Origin: an uncultured Gemmatimonadales bacterium
GTDB taxonomy: Bacteria > Gemmatimonadota > Gemmatimonadetes > Gemmatimonadales > GWC2-71-9
Direction of reading: 5' to 3'
DNA: 64,000 bases
Assembly (NCBI GenBank): GCA_963825055.1
Contig: CAWGSK010000007.1
Span: forward strand, 128,001-192,000
Below are positions 24,964-62,760 of this stretch, in pieces (positions within the stretch are counted from its first letter, which is position 1; the number at the start of each line of letters is the position of its first letter). Position numbers and translations under genes: made by a program. The notes under the pieces are model-generated. The model did no database searches and was not told where the DNA came from. It worked only from the letters and a program-made list of their open reading frames with translations.

Positions 24964-24971
24964 ACGGGAGG

Positions 24972-25035
24972 CGGCAGTCGGCAATCGGCAAATCGGCAGT
25001 CGGCAGTCGGCAATCGGCAATGGGCAATCGGCAGT
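24972..25035 (+). repeat. Heptamer tandem array CGGCART x9
   Basis: cggcagt/cggcaat units, one 8-nt unit. Confidence 0.95.
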
Positions 25036-25057
25036 TGCGATGGCTCCTCCCCTGAAA

Positions 25058-25085
25058 CACTACTCACTACCCACTACTCACTGCT
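25058..25085 (-). repeat. Heptamer tandem array AGTAGTG x4 (minus strand)
   Basis: cactact cactacc cactact cactgct; contains the ppx stop codon. Confidence 0.85.
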
Positions 25086-26644
25086 CCCTCTTCCACCACC
25101 TCGACCTCCACCCCCAGCACCTTCCCCAGCACGTCCGCCTTGCTGCCGGCGCTCCAGCATTCCAGGCCGATGTCGGCGCTCTTCCGGGCCGGGGAGGCGG
25201 TGATCACGAGGCGTTTCTGGTCCAGGGAGGTCTTGAGCCCCCGGACGGCGCCGACGTGACCCCGGTCGAGGCCGTCCGCCACGCGGAGGATGCCGGAGAG
25301 GCGCCGCACGACAGCCTGCTCGCTCCTGTCCAGCGCCGAGAACCCCTCGTGCTTCCCGCGCGGCCCCTTCTTCCGGTGGTAGCGCGCGATGAGTGCCACG
25401 AGGCTGCGGTCGGAGGGCGCGAGGTTGAGCCGCTCGGCGTGCATGATGAGCTGGTAGCTGTGCTTGTGGTGCTTGCGATAGCTCATCATCTGGCCGATGT
25501 CGTGCAGCAGGGCCGCGGTTTCGAGGAGTCGGCGCTCCTCGGGGCCCGCGCCAAGGTGGCCCTGAAGCTGGGTGAACAGTTCGACGGCCAGGGCCCGCAC
25601 GTGCTCGGCGTGCTCCCGGTCCACCTGGCAGCGCTCGACGAATTCGCGTGCCTCCCGGAGCGGCTCCTCCGGCTCGCCGCGCCCGGCCAGGCCCGCCATC
25701 TCCAGCAGCAGGCCTTCGCGGAGCCCGAAGGCGCTGATGGTCACCTCGCGGGCCTCCACCCAGTCGAGCAGGGCCGACATGATGGCCAGCCCTCCCACGA
25801 TGATGTCGGCACGCTGCGGGTTGAGCCCGGGCAGCTGCCTCCGCTCCTCGGGCGACATGTGGGAGAGCCGGTCCAGCAGCTGCTCCACGTCCGCCACCGC
25901 GACCGTCATCCCGTGGACCTGTCCGACTGTGGGCAGGTCGCGCTGCGCGGCCACCATGCGGCCGAGATTGGTGAAGGTGCCGCCCGACCCGATCACGCGC
26001 GACCGGGTCCATTCGCGACCAGGCAGTGACCTGCGAAGGGCCTTCCTGACTGCGTTCCGGATCTTCCGCACCTGGCGAAAGGGATTCTTCCCGCCCTGGA
26101 GGTACGTCTCGGTGACGCGGACTGCCCCGTACGGCATGGAGGCGGACTGTTCAACCAGGCCGTCCACGGCCCCGATCAGTTCCAGGCTGCCGCCGCCGAT
26201 ATCGGCGACGATCGTGCGACCGCCTGAAAGCTGGAAGTGGTGGTTCACCGAGCGATAGGAGAGGCTCGCCTCGATCTCCTCGTCGATGATCCGGAGCGGG
26301 ATCCCGAGTTCGTCCCGGACCAGGCGGCAGAAGGCCTCGCCGTTAGCTGCGTCGCGTACCGCAGCCGTAGCCACCGCCGCCACGCGGCGCACATTGCGAC
26401 GCTCGCAGACCGCGCGCATCCGGCGCAGCGTCTGGAAGGCCCGCTCCATGGCCTCCTCGCTCAGCAGGCCGGACGCCGCCAGCCCCGCCGCAAGGCGGGG
26501 CTGCTCCTTGACCTCGTCGATGATGCGAAGGCCGGTGGCGGGTTCGTAGGCCGCGACCACCAGCCGGATGGAGTTGGAGCCCACGTCGAGCGCCGCGAAG
26601 GGCTCGCCCGGGGACACGGCCTGCCGGTGGTGCGGGCCGCTCAT
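25067..26644 (-). CDS. ppx: Ppx/GppA exopolyphosphatase with HD domain
   Basis: DVGSNS, ATAAVR, DIGGGS, GLREG, LLHDIG. Confidence 0.93.
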   Translation of the reverse strand: MSGPHHRQAVSPGEPFAALDVGSNSIRLVVAAYEPATGLRIIDEVKEQPRLAAGLAASGLLSEEAMERAFQTLRRMRAVCERRNVRRVAAVATAAVRDAANGEAFCRLVRDELGIPLRIIDEEIEASLSYRSVNHHFQLSGGRTIVADIGGGSLELIGAVDGLVEQSASMPYGAVRVTETYLQGGKNPFRQVRKIRNAVRKALRRSLPGREWTRSRVIGSGGTFTNLGRMVAAQRDLPTVGQVHGMTVAVADVEQLLDRLSHMSPEERRQLPGLNPQRADIIVGGLAIMSALLDWVEAREVTISAFGLREGLLLEMAGLAGRGEPEEPLREAREFVERCQVDREHAEHVRALAVELFTQLQGHLGAGPEERRLLETAALLHDIGQMMSYRKHHKHSYQLIMHAERLNLAPSDRSLVALIARYHRKKGPRGKHEGFSALDRSEQAVVRRLSGILRVADGLDRGHVGAVRGLKTSLDQKRLVITASPARKSADIGLECWSAGSKADVLGKVLGVEVEVVEEGAVSSG

Positions 26645-42460: not shown

Positions 42461-43272
42461 CGGACATCGGAGCCGCGGCAGCGGTGGTGCGTGAGCGGCT
42501 CGACGGCTTTTCCCCCGAAGTCGCCATTGTCCTGGGCTCGGGCCTTGGCGGGCTGGCCGCCCGCCTGGAGGACGCCATCCGCATTCCCTATGGCGACATA
42601 CCAGGCTTCCACGCGCCATCGGTGGAAGGCCACAGGGGAGAGCTCGTGGCCGGGACCCTCGCGGGACGGCGCGTGCTGGCCCAGGCCGGCCGGTTCCACA
42701 TGTATGAGGGATACGACGCGAATACCTCGGCGCTTCCGGTCCGCGTGTTCGGCGCGCTCGGCATCGGCACCATGATCGTAACCAACGCCGCCGGCGGCAT
42801 CCGCCGGACCTTTCGTGCCGGCTCGCTCATGCTCATCGCGGACCACCTGAATTTCACGGGCCGGAACCCGCTGGTCGGGCCGGTGCTCGAGGGCGAGGAA
42901 CGCTTCCCGGACATGTCAGACCCCTACGACAGGGGGCTCCGGGCACTCGCGCGGGACGCAGCGACACGCGAAGGGGTCATGCTGGAGGAGGGTGTCTACG
43001 CGGGACTGCTGGGGCCGAGTTACGAAACACCCGCCGAGGTCCGCATGCTGGAGCGCGTCGGCGCCGACGCCGTCGGCATGTCCACCGTCGTGGAAGTCAT
43101 TGCCGCCCGGGCCCGCGGGATCCGCTGCCTCGGTTTCTCCTCGATCACCAACCCCGCCGCCGGCATCAGCGCCGAGCCCCTGTCGCACAAGGATGTGATG
43201 GCGGCGGCGGACAGGGTGACGGGGGACCTGGTGAAGGTGGTGGAAGGGGTGCTGGAGAGTAGTGAGCAGTGA
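42457..43272 (+). CDS. punA: Purine-nucleoside phosphorylase (trimeric type)
   Basis: LGSGLG, GRFHMYEG, TNAAGG, YETPAE, VGMST. Confidence 0.94.
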   Translation: MTDIGAAAAVVRERLDGFSPEVAIVLGSGLGGLAARLEDAIRIPYGDIPGFHAPSVEGHRGELVAGTLAGRRVLAQAGRFHMYEGYDANTSALPVRVFGALGIGTMIVTNAAGGIRRTFRAGSLMLIADHLNFTGRNPLVGPVLEGEERFPDMSDPYDRGLRALARDAATREGVMLEEGVYAGLLGPSYETPAEVRMLERVGADAVGMSTVVEVIAARARGIRCLGFSSITNPAAGISAEPLSHKDVMAAADRVTGDLVKVVEGVLESSEQ

Positions 43273-43408
43273 TTAGTGAGTAGTGATTAGTGCTTCAGGG
43301 ATGGTTCCGCCCGGGCAGACGGACAGCGTCGCAAGGAGATGGCTCCGCCAATGCACTACTCACTACTCACTACTCACTAGTCACTAGTCACTAGTCACTA
43401 GTCACTCT
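43258..43408. repeat. Inverted pair of AKTAGTG-type heptamer arrays (5 units, 61-bp spacer, 7 units)
   Basis: agtagtg agcagtg attagtg agtagtg attagtg ... cactact x3 cactagt x4. Confidence 0.95.
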
Positions 43409-45748: not shown

Positions 45749-46511
45749 GGGCGTGATCGTGGCGTTTGCCGGGCTCCTCGGCCTGATCCTCGGCAGCTTC
45801 CTGAACGTCTGCATCCTCCGGCTGCCGGCCCGGCAGTCGATCGTGCATCCACCCTCACGCTGCCCGAACTGCGGCGAGGGGGTGCGGTGGTACGACAACG
45901 TGCCGGTGCTCTCCTGGCTGATCCTGCGGGGGAAATGCCGTCACTGCGGCAACCCGATCTCGATCCAGTACCCGCTGGTCGAGCTCGCCACGGCTGCCAT
46001 CTGGGCCGGCATGGCACTGCTGTTCACCGCGCCGCTCGACATCCTTGCCGCCGCCCTCTTCCTGACCCTGCTGCTCGGCATCGCCATGACCGATGCGCGG
46101 GAATACATCATCCCGGACGAGTTCTCGCTGGGCGGACTCGTCATCGGGATCCTCGTCAGCCTCAGGGCCGGGCTGCCGGGCCTGCGGGACGCAGCCATCG
46201 GGGCGGCGGTGGGATTCGCGGTGCTCTGGCTCGTCGCGATCGTGGGCAAGCGGCTCTTCCGCAAGGAGGCCATGGGCGGTGGCGACATCAAGATGATGGC
46301 CATGGTCGGCGCCTTCCTTGGCTGGCAGGGCGTCTTCCTGACCATCTTCCTCGGCTCCGTGGTGGGGACGCTGGTCTTCGGACCGCTCGCGCTGGTCGGA
46401 AAGAAGAAGGAAGTGCCCTTCGGGATCTTTCTGGCGCTCGGGGGCGCAGTCACGTTCTTCTGGGGCCCGGCCCTGCTCGACTGGTACCGCAGTTACCTGG
46501 TGGCCTCGTGA
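45738..46511 (+). CDS. pilD: Prepilin peptidase (A24)
   Basis: GSFLNVCI, CPNC/CRHC, IIPD, MGGGDIK, PFG. Confidence 0.94.
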   Translation: MTDKGVIVAFAGLLGLILGSFLNVCILRLPARQSIVHPPSRCPNCGEGVRWYDNVPVLSWLILRGKCRHCGNPISIQYPLVELATAAIWAGMALLFTAPLDILAAALFLTLLLGIAMTDAREYIIPDEFSLGGLVIGILVSLRAGLPGLRDAAIGAAVGFAVLWLVAIVGKRLFRKEAMGGGDIKMMAMVGAFLGWQGVFLTIFLGSVVGTLVFGPLALVGKKKEVPFGIFLALGGAVTFFWGPALLDWYRSYLVAS

Positions 46512-47713
46512 CGCGTTCCGGCCTCGCCCTGATTGCCGGGATCGGGCTGGCCGCGTGCCGGGGCGAACCACCCCGCCCGCCGGCGGATGAACTCGCCCAC
46601 GTCGTGGACAGCCTCAAGCCTGCCATTGAAGCCGCTGCCGGGCTCCAGTTCACCCGCCCGGTGCGCTCGGCGCTCCGGAGCCGGGAGCAGGTGCGGGCCT
46701 ATCTCATCCAGGAATTCGACGACCAGCTTCCACCCGAGCGGCTCGAAGGGCTGGAGAATGCCTATCACCTCTTCGGGCTTCTCCCGGACAGCCAACAGCT
46801 CCGCCCGCTGCTGATCGACGTCCTGACCGAGCAGGTGGCGGGCTACTACGATCCCGACTCTACCACGCTGTACGGGGTGGCTGACCAGAAGGGGATCCAG
46901 TTGCGTGCGGTGGTGGCGCACGAACTCGTACACGCCCTCCAGGACCAGCACTATCCACTGGACTCGCTGCTGGAACAGCAGGAGGATGGCGACCGTGCCG
47001 CGGCGGCGCAGGCCATCCTCGAGGGCCAGGCACACTACGCCTCAGTGAAGCTGCTGGTGGGAGAGGCGGCGGACGTCACGACCATGGAATTCTGGGACAC
47101 GGCGCGAGAGCAGACCCGTCAGGCGCAGGAGCAGCTTCCGCGCTTCGGCAAGGCGCCCGTCGCGATCCGCGAAGAACTGCTCTTTCCGTACATCAGCGGG
47201 GCGGAGTTCATGCGCTGGTGGTTCGTGAACCACCCGGACGCGCTTCCCTTCGACGAGCGGATGCCTCTTTCCACCGAACAGATCTTCCATCCTGACCGCT
47301 ACGCGGCCGGTGATGCGCCGCTCACCGTCCGGTTCACCACCTCCGACAGCACCGTCATGTTCGAGGACGACGTGGGCGAACTGGGCCTGGCCACCCTGGC
47401 GGCGTCGGCAGCCAATACCGTCGCCATTTCCACCACCCGGGCCTATGGCTGGGGCGGCGACCGCTACCGGGTGTACCGCACCCCCGGCGGCCCCGCCCTC
47501 GTCTGGTTCGTCCTGTTCGATGACCCCGCCTATGCCGACCGTTTCTACACCGGCCTCGCCAGCGTGATGGAACGGGACTTCAAGCGGCCCGGATATGCCT
47601 TCCATCGCGAGCGGGTGGAAGTAGAGGGAAGTGCAGGGGTGAAGGTGGTGGTGGGGCCGGAGGGGTGGGAGCCACTAGAGGTAGTGCAGGTCAAAAAAGA
47701 GCGTGAGCGGTAA
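46508..47713 (+). CDS. Putative zinc metallopeptidase lipoprotein
   Basis: GTGA overlap with pilD; lipobox LAAC; AGYYDP, HELVHALQDQ, LEGQA, FPY, STEQ. Confidence 0.8.
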   Translation: MTRSGLALIAGIGLAACRGEPPRPPADELAHVVDSLKPAIEAAAGLQFTRPVRSALRSREQVRAYLIQEFDDQLPPERLEGLENAYHLFGLLPDSQQLRPLLIDVLTEQVAGYYDPDSTTLYGVADQKGIQLRAVVAHELVHALQDQHYPLDSLLEQQEDGDRAAAAQAILEGQAHYASVKLLVGEAADVTTMEFWDTAREQTRQAQEQLPRFGKAPVAIREELLFPYISGAEFMRWWFVNHPDALPFDERMPLSTEQIFHPDRYAAGDAPLTVRFTTSDSTVMFEDDVGELGLATLAASAANTVAISTTRAYGWGGDRYRVYRTPGGPALVWFVLFDDPAYADRFYTGLASVMERDFKRPGYAFHRERVEVEGSAGVKVVVGPEGWEPLEVVQVKKERER

Positions 47714-47770
47714 GCGGTAAGCGGTGAGCCGGAAAGTGAGGACAGCCTGAACGGTGAACCGTGAACGGTA
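47703..47770 (+). repeat. Left bipartite GTRARCG heptamer array
   Basis: gtgagcg gtaagcg gtaagcg gtgagcc, linker, ctgaacg gtgaacc gtgaacg. Confidence 0.9.
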
Positions 47771-48127
47771 TCAGACGGCGCGGCACCGTTGAACCAGGCC
47801 GAGCAGGAGGCGCTGAGAGCGTCTGTTGCGGGAGAGCAGGGGATCGATTGTTGCCCGGGGGATCGCTTCTGAGTCCTTGGCGAGTTCGAGTAGCTCCCCC
47901 GTCTCTATGGCGGAGCCGTAGGCGATCTCAAAATGGTGAGCCTGCCGTCGACCTGGGCCGTAGGCGTACCCTTCGGCAATGTTGAGTTGCACGGACAGAG
48001 CCGAACGCTGGATCTGGGAGAACAGTGCAGCGCACCATGGCTTCCAACAGGTACGGGCCAACCCGAACTCGCCAGGGACGCAGAAGCGGTTCCTGCGGCC
48101 ACGATAGACACCCTGCTGCTCCCGCAA
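47771..48127 (-). CDS. Four-helix-bundle protein (23S rRNA IVS protein / TIGR02436-like); N-terminus uncertain or frameshifted
   Basis: SQIQRSALSVQLNIAEG and FEIAYGSAIET signature. Confidence 0.85.
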   Translation of the reverse strand: MREQQGVYRGRRNRFCVPGEFGLARTCWKPWCAALFSQIQRSALSVQLNIAEGYAYGPGRRQAHHFEIAYGSAIETGELLELAKDSEAIPRATIDPLLSRNRRSQRLLLGLVQRCRAV

Positions 48128-48186
48128 TCAGCGGTGACCAGCGCCTCCTCCTCGGCATGCTCAAGCAACACCGCCCCTTCAAATCC

Positions 48187-48252
48187 CCTTCACCGATTCA
48201 CCGTTTACCGCTCACGCTGTTTCCGTTTTGCCGTTCACCGTTCACCGCTCAC
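48187..48252 (-). repeat. Right bipartite GTRARCG heptamer array, inverted relative to 47703-47770
   Basis: Minus strand gtgagcg gtgaacg gtgaacg gcaaaac ggaaacagc gtgagcg gtaaacg gtgaatc g gtgaagg. Confidence 0.9.
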
Positions 48253-49811
48253 CCTAATAAGACATTCACGCCAAACGCCACCAGCCCCACCACCGCCCCC
48301 AGCACATATCCGAGTCTGACGATCAGGTCCAGCTCCCGCTGGGTCACGTCCTTCACGATCTGCTCCATCCGCTGCGTACTGAAGCCCAGCACCTTCTGCT
48401 CCACCATCTCCTGCACCTTGAACTGCTCCACCACCGCGGGGATCTGTCGCTGCACCCATCCCCAGGCCGCGGTGGTGACGGCTTCCTCGATCTTCGCCGT
48501 CATCTCCGGCCCCATCCACCCGGCCGGCCGGCCGATGGGCCGGTCCAGCAGGTGGTCCGCCACGCTCCGGACGGCCTCCTCCACCCAGTGACGTCCCCGC
48601 TCGCCGCCCAGGGCGTCGGCGGCGAAGGCGGCCACCTGCGCCGGGGGGATGGCTTCGAGCAGGTCACCCCAGGTCCGCTGCTCGGCGGCGGTGAGCGCCC
48701 GGTCCACGGTCTGGCCGATGACCCGGCGGGTTCCCTCGTCCCGCGCCACCCGCATCAGCCAGTCACCCAGGGTCTCGGCGAGCCCCTCTACCCGGTCCTC
48801 GCCGAGGCGGCGGAACCGCTCGGCCAGCGGCACGCGCAGGAAGTTCACCACGGCGTCGTTGACCGCCCGCGCGACCTGGCTCTTCACGCCCGGCTCGTGG
48901 AGCCCCTCGGCCAGGCGGTCGAGTCCGCGCCGCTCGAACCCGTCCACCAGCCGCTCGATGGTGCGGTCGGTGACCATCAGCTTGGCCAGCACCCGCTCGT
49001 GGATAAGCAGGTCCCGGACTGTGTGATCGAATGCGTCGCGGAGGGAGACCTGGATCTTCCGGCGGGCATCGGGATCGGCCAGGATGCCGCTCAGCCGGTC
49101 CACCGCCACGGGCAGGTAGTCCGTGATGCCCTGCTCCACGGCCCCGATCAGACCCGGGGGGAGTCGGTCCAGCATTGCCCGGTCGTCGTGGGAGAGCTTG
49201 TCCAGCTGGTCACGCACGAAGCCCCGGAGCGTACGTTCCAGCTCCTCACCCTGCGCGAGCTGGGTGACCCAGTCCTCCACTTTCCGGCTGAGGGACTCGC
49301 GCCGTTCAGCAGTCAGCAGCTCACCCAGCGACCGGTCGCCCACCTCCTCCCGGAGCTTCGTCATCCACTCAGTCACCCGGGCCTCGAAGGCCGGCGAGCG
49401 GGCGTAGTCCGCCAGTCGCTCGGCCAGCCCGCTGCTCACCCGGGGCAGGGAAGACTCGATGGCCTCCAGCACCGGCGGACTGAGCAGGCCGCGGAGGGGG
49501 CCCCGCTCCGTTTCCATGATGTCCGTGACCGCCCGGCGGACTGCGTCGTCGAAGGCCTTCCGGAGGGCCGGGTCGGACAGGCGTCGGGCCAGGTCTTCGC
49601 TGGTGAGCAGGCGCTCACCAACGGCCTTGCCGACGCTTTTGGCGAGGCGGGGCTTGTTCTTGGGGATGGCCCCGTGGAAGCGGAAGGGGCCGAACCCGGA
49701 GGGCTCATGGGGGTGGAACAGCATCCACACCGCCACGGCGTTGGTGATCCCGCCGGAGAGGGCGCCCACCAGCACCGTGACCAGGCCCGTGATGAGGGTC
49801 GAGGAATCCAT
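48249..49811 (-). CDS. DUF445 family membrane-anchored protein
   Basis: GGITNAVAVWMLFHP, GAIPK, ELDLIVRLGYVLG. Confidence 0.88.
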   Translation of the reverse strand: MDSSTLITGLVTVLVGALSGGITNAVAVWMLFHPHEPSGFGPFRFHGAIPKNKPRLAKSVGKAVGERLLTSEDLARRLSDPALRKAFDDAVRRAVTDIMETERGPLRGLLSPPVLEAIESSLPRVSSGLAERLADYARSPAFEARVTEWMTKLREEVGDRSLGELLTAERRESLSRKVEDWVTQLAQGEELERTLRGFVRDQLDKLSHDDRAMLDRLPPGLIGAVEQGITDYLPVAVDRLSGILADPDARRKIQVSLRDAFDHTVRDLLIHERVLAKLMVTDRTIERLVDGFERRGLDRLAEGLHEPGVKSQVARAVNDAVVNFLRVPLAERFRRLGEDRVEGLAETLGDWLMRVARDEGTRRVIGQTVDRALTAAEQRTWGDLLEAIPPAQVAAFAADALGGERGRHWVEEAVRSVADHLLDRPIGRPAGWMGPEMTAKIEEAVTTAAWGWVQRQIPAVVEQFKVQEMVEQKVLGFSTQRMEQIVKDVTQRELDLIVRLGYVLGAVVGLVAFGVNVLLG

Positions 49812-49894
49812 AGGCCCGACGAAGATAGCCACCCCGGTCCGCCCCCGTTGGCCCGTTGCTTCAACCCCCTCCAGCCGTTTATCTTGCAAGGCTT

Positions 49895-53868: not shown

Positions 53869-53882
53869 TTCATGCAACAGCC

Positions 53883-53960
53883 TTACCACAGAGAGCACAA
53901 AGGACACAAAGAAAAAGTAAAAACTGTACTTAGTCTGTTCTTCGTGCCCTTTGTGGTGAA
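53883..53960. repeat. Inverted pair of nonamer arrays (NNCACRRAG) around an AT-rich spacer
   Basis: accacagag agcacaaag gacacaaag ... cttcgtgcc ctttgtggt gaa. Confidence 0.8.
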
Positions 53961-54002
53961 AGCCATGACTTTCACCCGGACCGATCCTCCAACCCGAGCC
54001 AC

Positions 54003-56445: not shown

Positions 56446-56534
56446 GTGAACGGTAAGCGGTTAGCGGTAAGCGGTGAGCGGGGTCGCAATTCGCGTCTTG
56501 TTCCCGCATTCACTGCTCACCGCTCACTGCTCAC
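56446..56534. repeat. Inverted pair of GTRAGCG heptamer arrays (5 units, 26-bp spacer, 4 units)
   Basis: gtgaacg gtaagcg gttagcg gtaagcg gtgagcg ... cattcac tgctcac cgctcac tgctcac. Confidence 0.92.
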
Positions 56535-56545
56535 GCAGTTCTCCC

Positions 56546-57614: not shown

Positions 57615-57630
57615 TCGTAGCCAAGCACTT

Positions 57631-62760
<5,130 letters not shown>

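Follow-up and report, generated by a model that had tools for sequence, protein, structure and literature searches.

Genes of the PF05635 four-helix-bundle family are found across phyla in an arm-gene-arm architecture, bounded by mutually inverted arrays of short tandem units, in a cassette that carries no recombinase, transposase or reverse transcriptase of its own. On balance, we favor a reading in which this cassette of about 550 bp lies between inverted 7-nt arrays at host stop codons, occupies many sites in both orientations, likely undergoes flips, replacement and gene loss through host recombination at its arms, and would be looped out of read-through transcripts by those arms. The copy described below is likely an assembly chimera.

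The window, a 64,000-nucleotide stretch of a contig from an uncultured Gemmatimonadales bacterium, contains one such locus and three gene-less array pairs:

46508..47713, + strand: host gene, Hvo_1808-like/putative metallopeptidase (ORF call; start assigned in the analysis)
47700..47770, - strand: left array of GGTRARC units, purine-rich on the + strand, assigned as downstream arm of allele A
47771..48067, - strand: four-helix-bundle allele A, 3' part of about 98 codons (PF05635/TIGR02436)
48064..48185, + strand: allele B, 3' part of about 40 codons, orientation opposite to allele A
48186..48253, + strand: right array, pyrimidine-rich on the + strand, assigned as downstream arm of allele B
48249..49889, - strand: host gene DUF445 (PF04286, 124 bits)
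56446..56535, no strand: gene-less inverted pair with the GGTRARC unit of the window cassette (fold z -6.8)
43257..43406, no strand: gene-less inverted pair, unit AGTGA(G/C/T)T, located where two host genes converge (fold z -6.9)
24965..25089, no strand: gene-less pair with mismatched arms, GGCAGTC-type facing CACTACT-type

Several observations of an earlier note on this DNA hold. GGTRARC-type arrays at 47700-47770 and 48186-48253 are mutually inverted, each contains the stop codon of a neighbor (47711-47713 for the + strand gene, 48249-48251 for DUF445), and the empty copies announced at 56446 and 43258 are present. The cargo family is as named: the window ORF scores 56.5 bits against PF05635 (cut-off 33.8) and 59.3 bits against TIGR02436 (cut-off 24). 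The + strand neighbor reaches 90.5 bits against NF038145 in a profile search, below the cut-off of 200. The two neighbors are convergent in 22/29 relatives' loci, and the DUF445 junction lacks the four-helix-bundle gene in 29/29 relatives; the locus is not fixed in relatives, contrary to what the note had set as its refutation. The flanks are protein genes with no rRNA gene around the locus, Rfam matches between 42000 and 58000 being a tRNA only, and a PADLOC search with 2 proteins matched no defence family.

The earlier note had further taken the interval for a single unit with one cargo and symmetric bipartite ends, a view that was not borne out, the symmetry stemming largely from a likely chimeric assembly. 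Positions 48030-48255 (+) are an inverted, roughly 70% identical repeat of the gene's own 3' end and downstream arm, which is why the entire 573 nt at the locus folds as a single rod (z -9.5). The window ORF aligned only to positions 31-104 of the PF05635 model, and the first helix of allele A is absent. Contigs of short-read runs X1 and X3 follow the window to 48067, then diverge into other letters; in a second contig the right half of the window unit is part of a full paralogue or orthologue, and a 495-nt X1 contig spans the allele B part and runs on as a full gene. Contigs from runs X1 and X2 cover the left array with 1 difference. The allele B stretch, detected by inverted self-alignment and tblastn, has one extra base at each of three places when compared with the short-read contig. 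That contig differs from allele A at 29 positions in 158 nt (15 of the 19 differences listed fall at third codon positions); the two alleles are 82% identical, and the allele A part is 68% identical to L080, another family member. Both alleles occur in short-read contigs as whole cassettes of about 550 bp, the allele A contig reaching to what would be 48233 and the allele B contig to 47728, each approximately the whole interval. The assembly is a mixture of sister lineages, with duplicate contigs of 75-99.9% identity totaling 317 kb. The printed copy is therefore probably chimeric, joining two alleles of opposite orientation; this is an inference insofar as no contig spans the whole window locus. 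As the printed unit consists of the 3' part of A (47771-48067) and the inverted 3' part of B (48064-48253), its "shared bipartite ends" are two homologous 3' arms.

A simple frameshift affecting the start of the reading frame was dropped once the inverted allele had been found. The halves differ mainly at third codon positions, and for this reason a fold-back artefact of the reads was rejected as well. It seems rather improbable that, at this locus only, two complete cassettes stand head to head with their middle lost by the assembly or the strain. One run does show both alleles at like depth (6.8 and 5.6), one relative (L069) has two divergent cassettes 2.8 kb apart, and the junction has a 4-base overlap; against this, either allele alone explains the interval length in what is a mixed assembly, the missing 5' halves are absent from the entire assembly, and the arrangement requires that arms meet closely in pyrimidine-to-purine (Y-to-R) order, for which 128 close pairs provide no example. 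The likely chimera carries a caution, namely that flipped alleles of mixed populations can assemble as false palindromic "elements". Junk sequence was also seen in the assembly 10 kb from the locus.

The architecture itself extends well beyond this copy. A flank scan of homologues, set beforehand as a test of the earlier proposal, revealed strong enrichment of inverted 7-9-nt arrays. With an inverted flank score of at least 16 as criterion, arrays surround 8/8 copies in the window genome (swapped flanks 83/600), 110/116 in relatives (32/600), 54/56 among metagenome relatives of allele A (286/600) and 61/82 in a cross-phylum set (63/600), 21 copies of which lack a strong inverted match. Shifted-window controls reached the criterion in 17/409 cases and short called genes of the window genome in 36/879, several of these being cassettes themselves. 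The termini are complementary and can form a stem; in a clade of family f2, long inverted repeats are kept without clear periodicity. Close array pairs run purine-to-pyrimidine in 93 cases versus 0 in the reverse order among 128, a polarity that does not hold everywhere (14/48 across phyla). The purine arm tends to have a host stop codon at its outer end (160/411 versus 36/3000 at random), and in the window genome tandem units of 7 nt lie at gene ends, their purine arm 3' of the stop codon. As the earlier note had observed, no transposase lies between the arms, where PF05635 is the only cargo; no reverse transcriptase was found in the genome. A search of 50,697 phage records gave no match, and among plasmid records there were 27 matches, most of them to cyanobacterial plasmids. 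The pattern YRRNRRN fits 368/431 heptamer arrays of the window genome; it is a loose consensus only, since rotation allows 28/63 purine-rich patterns to fit and arrays of other phyla depart from it. We also dropped the idea of the units as a source of stop codons in every frame, because a number of the common ones contain no stop triplet.

The repeat unit tracks protein clade rather than host genome in these comparisons, a covariation that the earlier note had proposed to test. The arms of one cassette agree within 1 base in 153/188 cases. A unit is held in common by 3.1% of 96 cassette pairs from the same genome and by 1.7% of 3999 pairs from different genomes, versus 51% of 61 protein pairs at 70-80% identity and 78% of 40 pairs at 80% identity or more. 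Arms built of 8-mers fall together in clades, and 7-, 8- and 9-nt families with many units coexist in one genome. L111 and L112, 80% identical with differing units, are a counterexample, and the linkage would also fit plain co-inheritance, falling short of proof that the protein reads the unit. It is doubtful that the protein acts as a regulator by binding specific RNA or DNA sequences, with the arrays as iterated sites of a post-transcriptional regulon and the flanking arrays autoregulatory. Hundreds of gene-end arrays share a fixed polarity, array load is higher where the gene is present, Avd protomers are described as using the same residues to grip flipped-out bases (bioRxiv 2023.10.23.563531), and the TAACTGA repeats have been proposed as regulatory (PMC4679880). 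Yet the 8 copies of the window genome differ in unit and lie at unrelated loci, a stable regulator would not be expected to be gained, lost, flipped and replaced at individual sites, and binding sites need no inversion, although inverted flank matches far outnumber direct ones.

Turnover at individual sites is better accommodated by our favored reading, recombination at the arms. The 262 cassettes are spread over 199 sites, and this spread supports the full/empty family suggested earlier, as do orthologous junctions with and without a cassette, changes of orientation and derivatives reduced to their arms. Both orientations occur at 11/30 shared sites (counted from the site listing), some of which have resident proteins at most 36% identical. 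The L177/L195 pair differs by a flip with breakpoints within the arrays, although opposite orientations could equally stem from independent insertions. Among protein pairs 70-80% identical, 46/74 have no common flanking gene. Across 13 genomes of genus g39, one operon junction is filled in 4, arms-only with mismatched arms in 1, reduced to short remnants in 6, and bare or nearly so in 2; there the cassette parts two normally overlapping genes. This pattern resembles an ancient gain followed by several losses rather than ongoing spread. As to a target-site duplication, the filled and bare junctions are too diverged, and a 4-base echo was seen by eye only. Wherever same-site pairs have any arm change, both arms are usually altered (26/32), but the arms agree within 1 base in both cassettes in only 13 of these 26. 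Recombination at the arms would be the engine of flips, swaps and gene loss, and arm exchange would also keep the two arms alike. Recombination or transposition is read here from sequence comparison, no event having been caught directly.

Gene-less array pairs would be scars of deletion or replacement, as well as landing sites. Over 600 kb, 43 period-7 arrays were counted versus 1 in shuffled DNA, and the window genome has 183 short gene-less inverted pairs, whose arms match poorly in 92. At least 30 array matches were found in 0/18 genomes lacking the gene versus 32/82 having it; the correlation is modest (rho 0.40), the genomes are related and a reversed-pattern control also matches real arrays. 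A Gibbs motif search of cassette leaders recovered the start-codon region only, without enrichment in gene-less spacers, and no leader motif is common to those spacers and the cassettes; the search thus lends no support to spacers having descended from leaders.

The earlier proposal that the arms pair gained indirect support, namely that they change together and that the clade in family f2 keeps long inverted repeats whose periodicity is not clear. Paired arms would loop the cassette out of read-through RNA, and the stem may make insertion at gene ends tolerable. A stronger version, that the arms act mainly in RNA, the cassette being an mRNA intervening sequence looped out and cut by RNase III like the Coxiella 23S element, with DNA flips as a by-product, is possible but improbable. 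That element is reported to have heptamers, a 28-bp terminal stem, an S23 ORF and RNase III cleavage in vitro (PMC4990558), and besides the two points above, at the g39 junction a stem would rejoin the stop and start of the separated genes. However, operons would be split if mRNA were cut and not religated, the host genes at the window site are convergent, and the 92 poorly matched gene-less pairs are unable to pair well. Moreover, 56/167 copies (those outside the GTDB scan) have a -10-like box 5-8 nt upstream of the start codon and downstream of the 5' arm (shuffled mean 5.4), so the gene's own mRNA would be without the 5' arm and hence the stem. The gene may accordingly be transcribed from a promoter inside the cassette.

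To our knowledge, structures of the four-helix-bundle family have been solved without assignment of a function or catalytic activity. A single-sequence fold was poor (pLDDT 57) and was discarded. We modeled not the window ORF but its clade-mate L090 from a 115-row alignment (pLDDT 96.7); the predicted fold is Xcc0516-like, with TM 0.9 to 2GSC and TM 0.76, at about 10% identity, to the Avd structure 4DWL. The 2GSC and 2RLD structures have five chains each. By likeness to Xcc0516 and Avd, the protein may form pentamers that bind its own arms as nucleic acid. It is far less probable that the cassette is a kind of retroelement served by a reverse transcriptase from elsewhere, in the way that Avd partners the enzyme of diversity-generating retroelements, with the arrays as primer or template products. 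The Avd-like fold, the reported binding of Avd to both reverse transcriptase and RNA (bioRxiv 2023.10.23.563531) and the horizontal passage of a single unit type between phyla speak for it, but the window genome (87% complete) has no reverse transcriptase, the enzyme is present in 13/101 genomes versus 83/101 for the gene (3 of the 13 lack the gene), and by-eye inspection revealed none among cargo ORFs between matched arms.

Over-represented 7-nt intergenic repeats are known from several phyla, and we know of no explanation for their origin. Our analysis ties them to one gene family, the gene being nearly always bounded by inverted arrays and the unit traveling with it; repeat origin and protein function thereby become testable with one construct. 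More tentatively, the cassettes might be autonomous members of an unrecognized mobile class without a catalytic mobilizer, in which a pentamer would recognize the 7-8-nt unit of its own cassette, be it in RNA or in single-stranded DNA, and would direct host enzymes to copy, insert or flip that cassette. The intergenic heptamers of Xanthomonas, cyanobacteria, Beggiatoa and this lineage, together with ORF-bearing rRNA intervening sequences, would then be scars and offshoots, such intervening sequences being recast as one among the landing sites of a more widespread element. A general link between heptamer arrays and the four-helix-bundle gene was not found in the literature searched, the supplements of which may mention the gene beside repeats.

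MITEs and invertible segments have terminal inverted repeats, full and empty forms and orientation flips, as do the cassettes, which differ in having no linked transposase or invertase, no established target-site duplication and arms that vary between copies. Cyanobacterial STRRs are among the known intergenic heptamer repeats. Parts of what the earlier note put forward as a candidate new element are already published, namely the arrays, their polarity and one heptamer-plus-ORF element, the Coxiella intervening sequence. Intergenic heptamers are described in Xanthomonas (GGGAATC) and Nostoc (GGGGA(C/T)T; PMC4692102) and in Beggiatoaceae (TAACTGA; PMC4679880); like ours, they form arrays of 7-nt units near the ends of genes and occur as inverted pairs that converge, their units are similar, and the rule in PMC4692102 that the purine arm follows or overlaps the stop codon also applies here. 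The main texts of both papers make no mention of a helix-bundle or S23 gene, leave repeat origin open and report no mobile-element link. In contrast to the heptamers they describe, a single genome here has families of 8 and 9 nt and a large variety of units. REPIN/RAYT and TIRYT systems (PMC6006769) likewise combine few coding copies with inverted flanks, many gene-less hairpins and long vertical persistence; here, the coding partner is a four-helix bundle instead of an HUH tyrosine transposase, and the arms are tandem arrays. The window genome has two Y1 transposases, flanked by repeats other than cassette arrays. The DGR accessory protein Avd (bioRxiv 2023.10.23.563531, PMC10053308) resembles the cassette protein in fold and in having pentameric relatives (2GSC, 2RLD); no reverse transcriptase, template repeat or variable repeat was found alongside the four-helix-bundle gene. 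The Coxiella burnetii 23S rRNA intervening sequence is described as having an S23p ORF preceded by tandem heptamers and a sporadic distribution (PMC4990558). Both have a PF05635-type ORF, heptamers and complementary termini forming a stem. Unlike that element as described, the cassettes lie between protein-coding genes in many copies per genome with varied units, and occur in both orientations at one site and as gene-less derivatives.

In the source genome of the window, G000 (3.53 Mb, 35 contigs, 87% complete, 6% contamination), all eight genes of the four-helix-bundle family PF05635/TIGR02436 lie between inverted arrays, each gene with its own unit. With a local inverted-alignment score of at least 16 as threshold, inverted flanks were found at 8/8 genes of G000, at 110 of 116 loci of relatives (a non-random choice, the ~110 with the best scores among 341 matches), at 54 of 56 metagenome relatives of allele A of the window gene, and at 61 of 82 loci of a cross-phylum set comprising about 20 phylum-level labels, assigned from record titles. 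The same score was reached by 17 of 409 shifted windows and by 36 of 879 short called genes (crude gene calls); swapped flanks reached it in 83, 32, 286 and 63 of 600 cases, the count being high only where a clade shares a unit. Set against the shifted windows, the relatives bear out the enrichment of inverted arrays beside PF05635 homologues that the earlier note had proposed to look for, and the phenomenon is family-wide rather than a property of the window locus alone. The gene also occurs in 27 plasmid records; three of the four copies opened have inverted arms, and the fourth has an IS gene at the place of the upstream arm. A cassette with long heptamer arrays on a Pseudanabaena plasmid (L356, NZ_CP112875.1) lies between cas6 and cas4, a position which may explain the occurrence of the gene in cas loci, noted earlier with no function assigned (PMC3936711). 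One clade of the gene in family f2 (L280, L295, L298, L299, L301, L308, L309, L311, L316) is bounded by long inverted repeats, scoring 34-67, with little or no periodicity.

The two arms of a cassette match within one base in 153 of 188 cases. Units are shared by 3.1% of 96 pairs of copies from the same genome versus 1.7% of 3999 pairs from different genomes, by 51% of 61 pairs at 70-80% protein identity and by 78% of 40 pairs above 80%. Arms of 8-mers are clustered in clades of the protein, and units of the YAGCNNT type reappear within one protein clade across many phyla. This distribution indicates co-transfer of unit and gene. The suggested co-variation of unit and protein clade thus exists as linkage, which falls short of recognition of the unit by the protein because L111 and L112, whose proteins are 80% identical, have different units; that the protein is a regulator and the arrays its iterated sites is distinctly unlikely.

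Comparison of sites points to a cassette that changes place and orientation and can disappear. The 262 cassettes kept from 299 profile hits (duplicates, partial genes and contig-edge cases were dropped) occupy 199 sites, and 46 of 74 pairs at 70-80% identity have no common flanking gene. Both orientations are held at 11 of 30 shared sites by hand count, and at some shared sites the proteins are at most 36% identical. Four orientation flips were checked by blastn, the L177/L195 breakpoints falling inside arrays. Among same-site pairs, which are not independent, both arms changed in 26, one arm in 6 and neither in 14. Filled and unfilled orthologous junctions, which the earlier note had wished to see compared, do exist. 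In genus g39, two overlapping genes, presumably imuB and dnaE2 by their motifs, meet at a junction that is filled in 4 of 13 genomes; mismatched arms alone are left in 1 and remnants in 6, and 2 have little or nothing there, a pattern that looks like an old gain and repeated loss. The window locus is likewise not fixed: its junction holds a PF05635 gene in none of the relatives' 29 loci. The same neighbour is found, convergent, in 22 of these, of which 14 have a gap of at most 45 nt and no array and 2 have short array pairs, one with the window's unit. At L323 (contig C133 of genome G029), a cassette lies upstream of DUF445, the family of one host neighbour at the window site, and downstream of it stands an array with that cassette's 8-nt unit, hinting at an arm-mediated rearrangement around DUF445.

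At the window site itself, mutually inverted arrays at both ends, the stop codons of both host neighbours inside them and, by profile search, a PF05635/TIGR02436 open reading frame between them were all confirmed; the idea of a single intact element did not stand, as the printed copy is likely a chimera of two alleles.

Parts of the window unit and duplicate contigs of G000
47700-47770: left array
47771-48067 (-): gene part, allele A
48064-48185 (+): gene part, allele B
48186-48253: right array
C14, C16, C21, C24-C29, C31-C33, C6 versus C8, C9, C12, C13, C15: duplicate contigs

In short-read run X1, a 546-nt contig agrees with 47688-48067 except at one position and then diverges for 166 letters, which by our reading would encode the missing first helix of the window gene; run X3 has the same loose end. 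From X1 comes also a 495-nt contig that spans 48064-48219 without three single bases of the window and then runs on as gene, differing from the first contig at 29 positions in 158 nt; 15 of the 19 differences listed are at third codon positions. Alone, each contig would nearly fill the interval (reaching 48233 and 47728, respectively); no short-read contig spans the whole locus. The runs that gave these contigs belong to a single study; the source sample may be among them. Since 317 kb of contigs are duplicated at 75-99.9% identity, the assembly evidently mixes two related lineages, which very probably carry the cassette here in opposite orientations, the consensus having switched between them. 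The stretch 48030-48255 (+) is homologous, in inverted orientation, to the 3' end of the window gene and the arm downstream of it, which explains why the whole 573 nt fold into one rod (z -9.5). That the site held two head-to-head cassettes whose middle was lost is unlikely. At window positions 57630-62500, beyond a tRNA gene, the 68% GC contig changes abruptly into low-complexity, AT-rich sequence (GC 0.28-0.39), likely a noisy-read assembly artefact.

On balance, we lean towards a cassette that has no recombinase of its own and would be flipped, replaced or emptied by host recombination at the arms. This exchange would also keep the arms alike, and mismatched orphan pairs would be its scars. 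Both Y1 tyrosine transposase genes of G000 are flanked by their own REP-like repeats, unlike the cassette arms.

Y1 tyrosine transposase genes of G000
C3:21452-21799: L240
C20:60213-60473: L241

Pairing of the arms would hide the cassette in read-through RNA from either side. A promoter of the gene's own, located between the arms, is likely because 56 of 167 copies that do not belong to the cross-phylum set have a TAnnnT box 5-8 nt ahead of the start codon (5.4 after shuffling); the cross-phylum set shows no excess (8 of 78 versus 6.5). An mRNA intervening sequence processed by RNase III is a lesser, tentative possibility. The modelled protein of a clade-mate has four predicted helices (pLDDT 96.7), resembles Xcc0516 (TM 0.9) and BT_0352 and, weakly, Avd (TM 0.76, E 0.34), and may bind the units. 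A reverse transcriptase was not found in the 87% complete G000 and is present in only 13 of 101 genomes; a retroelement with a borrowed reverse transcriptase is very improbable.

Tandem arrays of period 7-9 number 782 in G000 (449, 173 and 160, respectively), a total that is somewhat too high because of contig duplication and a few low-complexity runs; 600 kb hold 43 period-7 arrays versus 1 after shuffling. Arms match poorly in 92 of 183 short gene-less pairs. In close pairs (n=128), the purine arm precedes the pyrimidine arm in 93 and follows it in 0, and host stop codons lie at the outer end of the purine arm in 160 of 411 cases versus 36 of 3000 random positions. Among 100 relatives, at least 30 array-pattern hits occur in 0 of 18 without the gene versus 32 of 82 with it (rho 0.40), kin not being independent and the pattern being derived from G000. 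Other genes may likewise be gained and lost between arrays, since 3 of 10 inspected breaks between duplicate contigs have an unrelated accessory gene in one lineage and only arrays in the other.

Accessory gene/array breaks
C33:17982-18027 versus C9:150041-150641
C33:21065-22026 versus C9:146913-147019
C28:7981-8281 versus C13:156120-157184

At C3:91084-91688 of G000, an open reading frame that we take to be GIY-YIG-like, by its motif, is flanked by a purine arm and a pyrimidine arm that do not match and has its own inner inverted repeat. Inverted repeats of a different, roughly 9-nt kind flank a GxxExxY (PF13366) gene (L242, C13:290993-291337), and the same kind forms a hairpin with no gene at window positions 53875-53965 (z -5.4); the two may represent a parallel full/empty system.

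Full-text searches of openly accessible main texts found no statement of a general gene-array link, of the flips or of the unit-clade linkage. The main texts on Xanthomonas and Nostoc (PMC4692102) and on Beggiatoaceae (PMC4679880) describe paired heptamer arrays with polarity as in G000 and do not name the helix-bundle gene. The Coxiella 23S intervening sequence, as outlined in its report, combines heptamers, a terminal stem and an open reading frame of this S23/PF05635 type, as the cassette does (PMC4990558).
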